Notes: a model not told the origin generated them from the sequence alone. Shown: positions 21,845 through 47,125, counted from the stretch's first letter. The stretch is DNA of 64,000 nt from a virus (IMGVR_UViG_3300045988_107537:1-64000); one strand, 5' to 3'. Translations and numbers: made by a program.

Positions 21845-21865
21845 GTATCCTGTGTTATATAGTTA
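21845..21865 (-). promoter_or_regulatory. Copy of the conserved 20-bp intergenic motif (minus-strand sense TAACTATATAACACAGGATAC); probable promoter upstream of lig.
   Basis: The motif is followed directly by an RBS and the lig ATG. Confidence 0.45.
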
Positions 21866-21874
21866 TAATGAATA

Positions 21875-21910
21875 AAGAATGGCTTGCCATTACGAGCAAG
21901 CCATTTCTTT
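21875..21910. terminator. Strong hairpin AAAGAATGGCTTGC-CATTACG-AGCAAGCCATTTCTTT with T-rich flanks on both strands (bidirectional terminator).
   Basis: Read directly from the sequence. Confidence 0.5.
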
Positions 21911-21913
21911 CTC

Positions 21914-21934
21914 GTATCCTGTATTATATAGCTA
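21914..21934 (-). promoter_or_regulatory. Copy of the conserved motif (minus-strand sense TAGCTATATAATACAGGATAC, with a perfect TATAAT).
   Basis: It forms an inverted pair with 21973..21992. Confidence 0.45.
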
Positions 21935-21949
21935 AAGAGAGAATTTTAA

Positions 21950-21971
21950 GCCTCCGAGGTGGAGACTTTTT
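21950..21971 (+). terminator. GC hairpin GCCTCCGAGGTGGAGAC followed by TTTTTAT.
   Basis: Read directly from the sequence. Confidence 0.35.
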
Positions 21972-21972
21972 A

Positions 21973-21992
21973 TAGCTATATTATACAGGATG
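21973..21992 (+). promoter_or_regulatory. Inverted (plus-oriented) copy of the conserved motif, TAGCTATATTATACAGGATG.
   Basis: It is the inverted-repeat partner of 21914..21934. Confidence 0.35.
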
Positions 21993-22004
21993 CTCATATA
22001 ATTG

Positions 22005-45611: not shown

Positions 45612-45632
45612 GTATCCTGTGTTGTATAGTTA
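45612..45632 (-). promoter_or_regulatory. Conserved motif copy (TAACTATACAACACAGGATAC) upstream of the 690-aa / Pnkp operon.
   Basis: Read directly from the sequence. Confidence 0.4.
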
Positions 45633-45646
45633 CCATGTTAAAATCA

Positions 45647-45677
45647 AGGGGCCGAAGCCCCCTGTTTTTAATTTTTG
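45647..45677. terminator. Rho-independent terminator GGGGCCGAAGCCCC with T/A-rich flanks (TGTTTTTAATTTTTG).
   Basis: Read directly from the sequence. Confidence 0.55.
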
Positions 45678-46594
45678 TGGAAGTATTCGATCCAGCCCTT
45701 GTATCCTTGCCGGAAACTAATGTAGGCAACCTTGCTGCACTTTCTTCCGATAATGTCCGCAAGAGGATCTTTACCATTTCCGAAACTAAGCTCCGCAAGG
45801 TTGAACTCTGAATTACTCTTACAGTAATCGTAGACCTTCACATACTCACCATTTCTGGTCAGATGTCTTCGATCTAAAATCTTTGTATGATGTCTTTTTT
45901 CGAGAATGTCATTCAGCCTCACAAAATAACTATGGATTGTATTTACAGACATCTTCGGGTCGCTGTCTACACCAGTTCTATCCTCTGTTTTACGAAGAAT
46001 GTAATCACCATTTATGACATAAAATGTTCTGTATCCTCCCATATTGGGCGCATCATACTGTTTCATTTCATAACACTGCTTGATGATATCCATCAACCTT
46101 GCGTCAACATCAGTCCTATCGAGAACAGTACGAGATTCAAAGTCTACATCGTTAATTGTTAGATTAGAAACCTCACTAGAAGTAAGACCGATCCAGTACA
46201 AAACAGCAATCACATTCATACGAATCTGATACGCTTCTTCATACTTGTTTAAGAAACCAACAAACTCATCAACCGATGCAAAATACTTGTCCTCGTACAT
46301 ATTGTCTGAACTCACATCGCTCTCTGAGAATTCAGCCAAATCATACATGCTTGTACGATTTTCGTTCTTGATATAACCAGTGATTATCGATTTCACATTT
46401 CTGAATGAACGACTTGAGTTTACCCAATTGTATTTGGCAAACATCTTTACAAAATCATCTTTTGTGAAGTCGAATAGCTCATACCCGCACTCCGCTTCGT
46501 AGTCCATAACATGGTTAAGTGTCGATATAACAAACTCGCCGCTTCTATCAGAATACTTTTCAGCAAAAGCGTTGATCTTTTCTTCAGTAAGCAT
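45668..46594 (-). CDS. Tyrosine-recombinase-like domain protein (degenerate catalytic boxes).
   Basis: VLYWIGLTSSEVSNLTINDVDF resembles an integrase box I in which S replaces R, and HSYFVRL is box-II-like. Confidence 0.3.
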   Translation of the reverse strand: MLTEEKINAFAEKYSDRSGEFVISTLNHVMDYEAECGYELFDFTKDDFVKMFAKYNWVNSSRSFRNVKSIITGYIKNENRTSMYDLAEFSESDVSSDNMYEDKYFASVDEFVGFLNKYEEAYQIRMNVIAVLYWIGLTSSEVSNLTINDVDFESRTVLDRTDVDARLMDIIKQCYEMKQYDAPNMGGYRTFYVINGDYILRKTEDRTGVDSDPKMSVNTIHSYFVRLNDILEKRHHTKILDRRHLTRNGEYVKVYDYCKSNSEFNLAELSFGNGKDPLADIIGRKCSKVAYISFRQGYKGWIEYFHKN

Positions 46595-46647
46595 AATGGC
46601 ACACTCCTTCTTATTATATGTAGTGTACCATTAACCCTTATAAAAAA

Positions 46648-47067
46648 TCAAGCAAATGCGGCAAAATTCTGAAATTCCATAGTATGTTGTACGCCGCTCA
46701 CGAACGCCGAGATCAAAAACGGTTCATCCTTGCATCTGGCCATTGCGATCATATTCATATGACGCTCAGACAAGACACCAAGCTTTTTGATAAACTGCCC
46801 TTTGTTAAGTGTGTCAGTCTCTTCACAGAGAACGATACTGTCAACCTCTAGGAAATCGCAATCTTCCTTTGAGAGCAGGACATGAACCGGAGAACGCTTG
46901 TATATTCTGGAAGACAACGGATTCCCCTTGATTGTTGGACTGAAGAAGTTGCGCTTGTTGTTGCTTGTCACAACAAACGGTCGAATACCGCGCTGCTGAT
47001 GACCCGTCGCATTGGATAGATCAACCAACCAAACCTCTCCGACCTTTGGGTCAATATTGTTGTCCAT
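46648..47067 (-). CDS. MazF/PemK-family toxin-like protein (putative mRNA interferase).
   Basis: GEVWLVDL...TGHQQRGIRPFVVTSN...VLCEETDTL matches the PemK/MazF core (vWxvdf..G.E..G.RP.vV.s). A GAGGAGAAAG RBS is present. Confidence 0.6.
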   Translation of the reverse strand: MDNNIDPKVGEVWLVDLSNATGHQQRGIRPFVVTSNNKRNFFSPTIKGNPLSSRIYKRSPVHVLLSKEDCDFLEVDSIVLCEETDTLNKGQFIKKLGVLSERHMNMIAMARCKDEPFLISAFVSGVQHTMEFQNFAAFA

Positions 47068-47077
47068 AGTCTTTCTC

Positions 47078-47097
47078 CTCTATAATAGTGTAGCTCC
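47078..47097 (-). promoter_or_regulatory. Degenerate conserved-motif copy (AGCTACACTATTATAGAGG) upstream of the mazF-like gene.
   Basis: Read directly from the sequence. Confidence 0.35.
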
Positions 47098-47104
47098 GTT
47101 CCAT

Positions 47105-47125
47105 AACTACATTATACAGGATACC
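47105..47125 (+). promoter_or_regulatory. Plus-oriented conserved-motif copy (AACTACATTATACAGGATACC).
   Basis: It lies back-to-back with 47078..47097. Confidence 0.3.

Follow-up and report, generated by a model that had tools for sequence, protein, structure and literature searches.

In this study, we describe a recurrent intergenic element, here called the box, together with the gene of its candidate repressor, in viral DNA from IMGVR_UViG_3300045988_107537. The window, by which we mean the whole stretch that was analysed, is 64,000 nucleotides (nt) long, and the boxes span positions 21,845-47,125 of it. Essentially all long open reading frames (ORFs) and the GC skew identify the minus strand as the coding strand, and the motif is therefore read on that strand, where its consensus is TAGCTATATAATACAGGATAC, a contiguous, non-palindromic sequence of 21 base pairs (bp) with the form TAGCTA-N6-(A/T)ACAGGATAC. 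A box that is co-directional with the genes and reads TAGCTATATAATACAGGATAC or a close variant is termed direct, and one in the opposite orientation is termed inverted; the window contains five direct and two inverted boxes. All seven copies are intergenic and every one lies 3-40 nt upstream of a ribosome-binding site (RBS), in front of lig, an AAA_24 ATPase gene, a methyltransferase gene, the operon of a 690-amino-acid (aa) protein and Pnkp, or a PemK-like gene, and several stand directly behind a terminator hairpin. An earlier note on this DNA had placed the motif in just this way, in intergenic gaps immediately upstream of the RBS and start codon of these genes and often after a terminator hairpin, and that description holds.

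When TATCCTGTATTATATAGCTA was searched in the window with up to three mismatches, seven matches were found, against none in the 100 dinucleotide-preserving shuffles that served as control. In plus-strand coordinates, five of the matches lie at 21846-65, 21915-34, 36042-61, 39643-62, and 45613-32, and the two in the opposite orientation at 21973-92 and 47104-23. A position weight matrix (PWM) made from one consensus per genomic site, with a maximum score of 36.8, recovers exactly seven sites in the window at scores of 28.8-36.8, all others scoring 8 or less, and shuffled windows contain 0-2 sites with a score above 8. The earlier note, which counted eight or more copies including two inverted pairs, was right about the motif and, to within 1-2 nt, about its coordinates. 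There are seven copies only, the supposed eighth, degenerate copy at 47078-97 having a negative PWM score and agreeing at 10/20 positions by hand count, essentially AGCTA. Likewise, one of the two inverted pairs stands, 21915-34 / 21973-92 with its arms 38 nt apart, and it is the single true inverted pair in the window; the second is a single inverted copy. The boxes and the features that surround them are as follows, from left to right.

21831, minus strand: ATG of lig, preceded by the RBS AAGGAGG
21845..21865, minus strand: direct box A2, TAACTATATAACACAGGATAC (PWM 31.5), without a -35, 3 nt upstream of the lig RBS
21878..21905, minus strand: strong intrinsic terminator hairpin with an 11-bp stem and a T-run, between A1 and A2
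21914..21934, minus strand: direct box A1, the consensus copy TAGCTATATAATACAGGATAC (PWM 36.8, the maximum)
21945..21968, minus strand: short hairpin (GTCTCC-ACCTC-GGAGGC) within the 38 nt that separate the inverted arm from the direct one
21973..21993, plus strand: inverted box, reading TAGCTATATTATACAGGATGC on the plus strand (PWM 29.3)
21980..22008, minus strand: consensus sigma-A-type promoter TTGACA-17-TATAAT (12/12 matches) toward lig, overlapping the inverted box
36041..36061, minus strand: direct box TAGCTGTGTAATACAGGATAC (PWM 28.8) preceding the replication operon, whose first gene encodes the AAA_24 (Sak4-like) ATPase
39642..39662, minus strand: direct box TAGCTATATAATACAGGATAT (PWM 30.9) downstream of the tRNA cluster and of a hairpin, with 3 nt between it and the methyltransferase RBS
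45612..45632, minus strand: direct box TAACTATACAACACAGGATAC (PWM 29.8) before the 690-aa/Pnkp operon, 14 nt past the terminator of the repressor-like gene
45647..45663, minus strand: terminator hairpin GGGGGCTTCGGCCCC and T-run, at the end of the operon of the 108-aa ORF, the PemK-like gene and the repressor-like gene
45668..46594, minus strand: gene of the 308-aa MrpR/SroF/YopR-family protein with a putatively inactive tyrosine-recombinase fold, the candidate box-binding repressor
46648..47067, minus strand: PemK/MazF-like gene, the first gene downstream of the 47.1-kb inverted box and promoter and directly upstream of the repressor-like gene
47078..47097, minus strand: leader and RBS of the PemK-like gene, the supposed degenerate copy, not a member of the motif (negative PWM score)
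47104..47124, plus strand: inverted box, TAACTACATTATACAGGATAC on the plus strand (PWM 29.5), inside a sigma-A promoter
47111..47139, minus strand: sigma-A-type promoter TTGACT-17-TATAAT (11/12 matches) toward the PemK-like and repressor-like genes, overlapping the inverted box
47528..47555, minus strand: promoter TTGACT-16-TATAAT without a full box, heading the operon of the 108-aa ORF, the PemK-like gene and the repressor-like gene

The lig locus displays the most complete arrangement of these elements. In the direction of transcription it runs from the consensus promoter with its inverted box through the short hairpin, a direct box, the strong terminator and a second direct box to the RBS and lig, and relatives of this phage keep the TTGACA and TGTATAAT of the promoter. 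More generally, this phage combines two promoter architectures: in one, an inverted box accompanies a consensus sigma-A promoter, and in the other, a direct box stands without a -35. By the canonical sigma-A criterion (a -35 TTGACA 16-18 bp from TATAAT, or TGn), both inverted boxes are part of sigma-A promoters on the coding strand, where the spacer ends in ATCCTG and ATAGCTA or GTAGTTA lies over the start site. The direct boxes, on the other hand, match TTGACA at no more than 3/6 positions at spacings of 16-18 and have no TGn extension, and because they have neither element they cannot be ordinary sigma-A promoters. Only three coding-strand promoters with at least 11/12 matches occur between 20 and 64 kb; two of them are overlapped by boxes and the third (47555-47528) is without a full box. 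For the copies at 21915 and 39643, which were checked by eye, no -35 of an antisense promoter was found on the plus strand.

Several proposals of the earlier note bear on this architecture. The motif had been read as a perfect or extended -10, which is accurate for the two of the five direct copies in the window whose central hexamer is TATAAT; the remaining ones have TATAAC, TGTAAT, or TACAAC, and none has TGn. The suggestion that the inverted copies might be antisense start sites or arms of a palindrome is contradicted by their position, each lying within a near-consensus sigma-A promoter that fires toward the genes. The idea of a phage-specific promoter class read by a phage factor has fared better in part: the boxes are at the heads of transcription units and have two candidate factors, and a phage-specific class read or controlled by a phage factor is reasonable because the direct boxes, with no sigma-A -35 or TG, cannot be ordinary sigma-A promoters. 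What is conserved, however, are the flanks of the box and not the -10-like centre.

This last point comes from the comparison with relatives. A megablast search of INPHARED with 20 kb returned no near-identical phage, and a scan of genome contigs for the host gave distant helicase matches only, all spurious. IMG/VR yielded considerably more than 100 relatives, 125-139 kb in length, and a single human-gut dataset accounts for most of them. A column-wise alignment of the lig intergenic region from 59 distinct relatives was noisy from indel outliers and was replaced by clustering per site. Clustered by context, the box instances form about 12 independent sites, at least five of them just outside the window and seen in relatives. 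Within each site the box is conserved and the flanking intergenic DNA, sometimes the downstream gene as well, is variable. The box at 39642..39662, for example, is invariant across 13 contexts in which flanking DNA and downstream gene vary, the box at 36041..36061 has AGTAAT or TGTAAT as its centre in relatives, and the one at 45612..45632 has CGTGAC or TGTAAC with the flanks intact. Over all sites and roughly 200 relatives, TAGCTA/TAACTA and ACAGGATAC are essentially invariant, while the central hexamer takes the forms TATAAT, TATAAC, CATAAT, TACAAT, TACATT, AGTAAT, TGTAAC, and even CGTGAC, several of which would be dead as sigma-A -10 elements. Since the flanks are invariant while the centre drifts, it is TAGCTA and ACAGGATAC, rather than the -10 hexamer, that would carry the function. 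Invariant flanks amid a varying centre, varying surroundings and varying downstream genes would be the footprint of a protein that recognizes the flanks. We conclude that the motif is genuine and has a function, and that it does not represent a class of sigma-A -10 elements.

It has to be considered, even so, that the boxes could be host sigma-A '-10-only' promoters whose flanks would owe their conservation to shared ancestry, or to their being an optimal discriminator and leader, without any phage factor taking part. The consensus centre TATAAT, the A at -11 that is kept at most sites, and the position before the RBS, which gives plausible leaders of 8-30 nt, are all compatible with such promoters. 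However, the missing -35 and TGn extension of the direct boxes, the perfect flanks that are kept at sites with TACAAC, AGTAAT, and CGTGAC, the recurrence of the flanks in inverted form in promoters that have their own -35, and the conservation of boxes whose surroundings diverge make this explanation improbable. More improbable still is a role at the RNA level, in which the inverted pair would form a duplex for RNase III-type processing or a terminator, or the ACA leader would be a target of the PemK/MazF-like endoribonuclease. The lig arms with their internal hairpin (21836-22000, minus strand), if co-transcribed, are predicted to form a stem of about 18 bp with a minimum free energy of -52 kcal/mol (z = -6.5), and a PemK-like protein is encoded beside one box. 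Nevertheless, there is one true pair in the window and the five single copies cannot pair, the inverted copies lie in a promoter spacer and -10 and so are mostly untranscribed from those promoters, and an Rfam scan detected tRNAs only, with no RNA family at the boxes. Equal conservation in both orientations points instead to recognition of double-stranded DNA.

The sites beyond the window enlarge the same picture. In the relatives, at a position equivalent to about 65.4 kb of the window, a promoter with an inverted box (TTGACA-17-TATTAT) is followed by a hairpin and a direct box, and this arrangement heads a long array of small early ORFs. At the true strand switch, two boxes stand back to back, 38 nt apart, each directed toward its own gene array, and the leftward one is immediately downstream of a promoter TTGAAT-17-TGgTATAAT; the direct boxes are co-directional with the genes on both sides of the switch. 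Another box is found directly upstream of the gene of a 930-aa polymerase. The spacing of 38-40 nt between arms recurs at three paired loci in the relatives, and, apart from the promoter at 47555, every strong sigma-A promoter is overlapped by a box or immediately followed by one.

A candidate for the protein that reads the box is the 308-aa product of the gene at 45668-46594. Because pairwise BLAST of this protein against YopR was not significant, a profile-profile comparison was needed, and in hhalign its family aligns with the YopR family at a probability of 89.9% (expect value (E) 1.7e-6) over 247 columns that cover both domains (CB and CAT). Close homologues of the protein have a weak match to PF22823 (MrpR_C_cat). 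In a Foldseek search with its AlphaFold model, the top match was the SroF-DNA complex 9rd5, with SroF-Sar, YopR, and MrpR among the best matches in the PDB; a search of PDB sequences gave only a marginal match to Tn1549 Int. The Arg-I of recombinases is lost, the 'GLR' motif reading GLT, and the C-terminal half, with the HxxR and Tyr positions, is poorly modelled. The repressor-like protein is listed in 753 blocks of the public collection. In all relatives seen, its gene forms a minus-strand trio with the 108-aa ORF (47159-47485) and the PemK/MazF-like gene, beside which no obvious antitoxin was identified. MazEF is known to take part in the lysis-lysogeny control of the SPbeta family, and the PemK-like toxin may therefore belong to the switch.

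The phage is a distant, syntenic relative of the Bacillus phage SPbeta. The Sak4-like ATPase, DnaB, primase, RecJ, and PolIII-alpha are syntenic with those of SPbeta, Ant-like and recombinase-like proteins are also present, and the late genes, which lie on the other strand, begin with a YonO-like gene in both phages. At the left end of the window there is a Tn916-type integrase (Integrase_DNA and Phage_integrase; 201-1394, minus strand). Some of the metagenomic contigs that carry the phage exceed 200 kb and are longer than the phage genome, which is consistent with integration, and on the basis of the integrase and these contigs the phage looks temperate. A second ORF of the tyrosine-recombinase family, of 292 aa, lies in the early region (52909-53787, minus strand), so that together with the integrase and the repressor-like protein the window encodes three proteins with the recombinase fold.

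There is a close published precedent for a repressor of this type. In SPbeta, MrpR binds and represses about 10 promoter regions through the multi-copy element SPBRE, among them PyonP, which is located upstream of yonO (PMC10516654). The SroF protein of phi3T binds as a monomer and reads up to 24 bp (bioRxiv 10.1101/2025.11.27.690993), and a monomer of this type would explain a box that is long and non-palindromic. By our own scan, SPBRE in SPBc2 reads approximately acaaatacAAAAAATATGTATAT and has, in 7/7 instances, the same orientation as the gene that follows; it abuts the RBS in several, and at yonP and yorE it makes up the spacer and -10 of TAGACA-17-TATAAT promoters. A different SPbeta repeat, TCATTTATGA(A/G)GGT, has no convincing counterpart in this phage.

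Our preferred interpretation, held with moderate confidence, is that the 21-bp box is the recognition site of a phage protein, most likely the operator of the MrpR/SroF/YopR-family master repressor encoded at 45668-46594. What was observed comprises the statistics, anatomy and conservation pattern of the motif, the relationship of the 308-aa protein to this family and the gene order shared with SPbeta; we infer that this protein binds the box and that its binding represses transcription. By analogy with SPbeta and phi3T, one repressor monomer would clamp each long, asymmetric box, and as the proposed binding is monomeric, the box would be usable in either orientation. Boxes lie in promoter cores or directly behind promoters and would head every early and middle transcription unit, so that in a lysogen their occupancy could silence the lytic programme. 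The inverted boxes would cover the spacer, -10 and start of the sigma-A promoters toward lig and toward the PemK/repressor operon, the latter amounting to autoregulation. The direct boxes would either cover a weak start region without a -35 or act as roadblocks to read-through. The further boxes known from the relatives would extend this control to the divergent promoter region where the coding strand switches, to the start of the long early array and to the YonO-like polymerase gene. The promoter at 47555 on the repressor-like operon, which has no box, is as expected for a promoter that maintains lysogeny, and the 45.6-kb box, located after the terminator of the repressor operon and with a centre free to vary, is as expected of a pure binding site or roadblock. 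Regulator binding had been mentioned in the earlier note as an aside, for the inverted pairs only. It has become the best-supported reading and extends to all copies, given an SPbeta-like phage with an MrpR/SroF homologue. If the boxes are operators, the repressor system based on a monomer clamp of an inactive recombinase extends beyond the SPbeta phages of Bacillus and is also present in a very abundant, apparently temperate family of human-gut phages of about 125-139 kb. A precisely delimited 21-bp box and a candidate gene offer a practical handle and can be used for mapping the lytic regulon of relatives that have not been cultured.

Several findings weigh against the operator reading. With regard to the protein, its match to Pfam MrpR_N_CB (E 2.8e-4) is below the gathering cut-off, it is remote from the SPbeta repressor at about 16% identity, and its model is poor, with a predicted local distance difference test (pLDDT) score of 58, being good for residues 1-177 only and falling below 50 in the C-terminal half. 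With regard to the DNA, the sequences of the two elements are unrelated, TAGCTATATAATACAGGATAC here and acaaatacAAAAAATATGTATAT in SPbeta; since divergent specificity is expected at 16% protein identity, the dissimilarity argues against membership by sequence and not against the mechanism. In addition, 5/7 boxes in the window have no recognisable sigma-A promoter to repress. The orientation of the box also tracks the type of promoter perfectly, direct boxes never having a -35 and inverted boxes always having one, a correlation that is not predicted by a pure operator blind to orientation. Finally, the replication genes that extend over 23.6 kb, from 45.6 to 22 kb, have no promoter candidates apart from the direct boxes, which suggests that the boxes may themselves be promoters for a reader other than the sigma-A holoenzyme.

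A candidate for such a reader exists among the phage proteins. In the main alternative to the operator reading, less probable but still substantial, the phage's YonO-like RNA polymerase, a two-barrel enzyme of one chain, would use the box as its promoter, with a logic like that of T7. Host sigma-A promoters would then give early transcripts, including that of the polymerase, the enzyme would start at the boxes of the middle (replication) operons and at its own gene, and the inverted boxes would let it occlude host promoters, bringing about a switch from host to phage transcription. The gene that encodes the enzyme is known from the relatives and is located as follows.

Relative L086, 1340-4132, minus strand (equivalent to relative L204, 7252-10044, plus strand): 930-aa YonO-like gene, about 11-14 kb beyond the right end of the window

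The 930-aa protein of the relatives has the motif NGADFDGD and matches Pfam RdRP (E 9e-15; 54.8 bits against a cut-off of 23.8). In tblastn it finds SPbeta YonO (E 5e-19), and it shares 40% identity with Clostridium phage c-st and 38-39% with Enterocloster phages; a PDB sequence search with it found nothing. Its gene heads a late array that encodes a ClpP-like protease, PhoH, a phosphoesterase, tRNAs, and terminase. The presence of a box before the polymerase gene itself favours this explanation, and so do the length and contiguity of the direct boxes, which are without a -35 and follow the direction of the genes on both sides of the strand switch, trail terminators and abut RBSs. The central hexamer, which at some sites breaks the sigma-A rules, and the replication region, with no other promoter candidate, are also in its favour. 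Moreover, Pfam and PHROG scans of about 40 ORFs, which are most but not all of the window ORFs of at least 140 aa, found no sigma factor and no sigma-like or MotA-like gene.

The 2017 study of YonO (PMC5467207) describes it as a DNA-dependent RNA polymerase with two barrels in a single chain and did not establish the sequence of its promoter, and no later definition of that promoter was found in the papers searched. In SPbeta, YonO serves the late operon alone and starts at one site (PMC5467207). This single late start speaks against a polymerase that starts at many middle operons, and the P_YonO region of SPbeta, as delimited by the published primer-extension primers, has no similarity to the box. 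Furthermore, the 10 kb downstream of the polymerase gene, reaching terminase and including a non-coding stretch of 1.5 kb, contain no box, and the earlier suggestion of late promoters is without support. If the boxes were promoters, transcription from the inverted ones would run antisense into the genes upstream, at their 3' ends, and CGTGAC would be an odd melting region for the centre of a promoter. The Enterocloster phage PMBT24, whose polymerase is 38.6% identical, is without the box. Because the polymerase gene lies outside the window, its link to the box rests on the relatives. If the box is nevertheless the promoter of this polymerase, it would be the first promoter consensus for the YonO-type family, it would answer the question left by PMC5467207, and it would provide a compact, orthogonal pair of promoter and polymerase. 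The operator and polymerase-promoter readings are not mutually exclusive, and an MrpR-like repressor could bind the same box as the polymerase, which would place the sequence under a dual constraint. What probability remains falls to -10-only sigma-A promoters, roles at the RNA level, and other explanations.

Two observations on the phages just mentioned are recorded here in their own right. When PMBT24 (L200/L201) was examined for the same box, which it does not have, the only long repeat was the exact 18-mer TCAATTCGTAAAGTAAAA, present in six copies in unrelated contexts (1079, 2157, 5035, 73407, 73596, and 87073), in both orientations and in several instances beside terminator-like hairpins. 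This 18-mer bears no relation to the box, and the intergenic DNA of PMBT24 is too AT-rich for discovery of motifs by k-mers. PMBT24 also encodes a SigK-like gene. In L204, the 1.5-kb non-coding stretch (13700-15229) between the phosphoesterase and terminase genes contains tRNAs and, by eye, about five consecutive hairpin or terminator-like structures. Two blocks of it, at about 13694-13795 and 13928-14010, are kept in nearly all relatives. By position, the stretch is analogous to the yonN-yonK gap of SPbeta, the site of the YonO start and of a non-coding RNA.

The genes next to the boxes have features of their own. The methyltransferase ORF that follows the 39.6-kb box (39566-39640, minus strand) has a strong RBS, AAAGGAGG, and no in-frame ATG, GTG, or TTG until 39566; since the conserved N-terminus of the methyltransferase, VILRVLIACEESQ..., starts earlier, a non-canonical start codon (perhaps ATC or ATT) or a local error is suggested. 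In the adjoining tRNA cluster, tRNA-Met (39766-39857, minus strand) is unusually long at 92 nt, possibly with an insertion or intron, and an eighth tRNA-like sequence (39886-39952, minus strand) scores 30.1 bits in Rfam and is not called by ARAGORN. Downstream of the 45.6-kb box, the 690-aa protein (43510-45579, minus strand) belongs to PHROG 1735 / DUF8224, and its gene is followed by a Pnkp-RNA ligase fusion (AAA_33, Metallophos, RNA_lig_T4_1) and then by the tRNA cluster, a neighbourhood that suggests a tRNA-repair module. In the divergent relative L284, a Cas12f1-like TNB (TnpB-type) gene (12936-14225) lies between box-headed operons, and in other relatives the same box-flanked slots hold HNH/NUMOD4 homing endonucleases or different methyltransferases. 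As these slots hold different genes in different relatives, the boxes delimit exchangeable gene cassettes.

It remains to compare the box with regulatory elements of other phages. The T4 middle promoters that depend on MotA/AsiA, the SPO1 promoters read by gp28 and the A3 promoter of phi29 activated by p4 are similar in having no normal -35, in depending on a phage factor and in often standing in tandem with early promoters of the host type. However, their conserved element is at -30/-35 or further upstream, whereas in the present phage conservation is confined to -18 to +3. Promoters of the T7/T3/SP6 class resemble the box as contiguous elements of about 20 bp without a -35, in fixed orientation, at the heads of operons after terminators and in a phage with its own polymerase. 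They differ from it in that the enzyme here is a two-barrel, YonO-like one, the inverted copies overlap host promoters, and no copy occurs in the late region examined. From SPBRE the box is set apart by more than its sequence. Most of its copies have no -35, while TAGACA at a distance of 17 bp is present in some SPBRE promoters; some copies are embedded in consensus promoters in inverted orientation; and several are paired as dyads whose arms, 38-40 nt apart, flank a hairpin. Unlike the SPbeta family, moreover, this phage has no arbitrium genes that we could identify, it comes from the human gut, and among isolated phages the nearest are those of Clostridia (Clostridium innocuum, Enterocloster bolteae). 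The box and SPBRE/Phi3TRE are nonetheless alike in being long (15-24 bp), asymmetric, multi-copy (about 10 per genome) and intergenic elements in the early half of a temperate phage of about 130 kb, with copies that in many cases share the direction of the following gene and adjoin its RBS and with one copy before the operon of the YonO polymerase. With MrpR and SPBRE the present system would further share a repressor with an inactive tyrosine-recombinase fold, encoded in an operon that has its own box, and a syntenic replication module.

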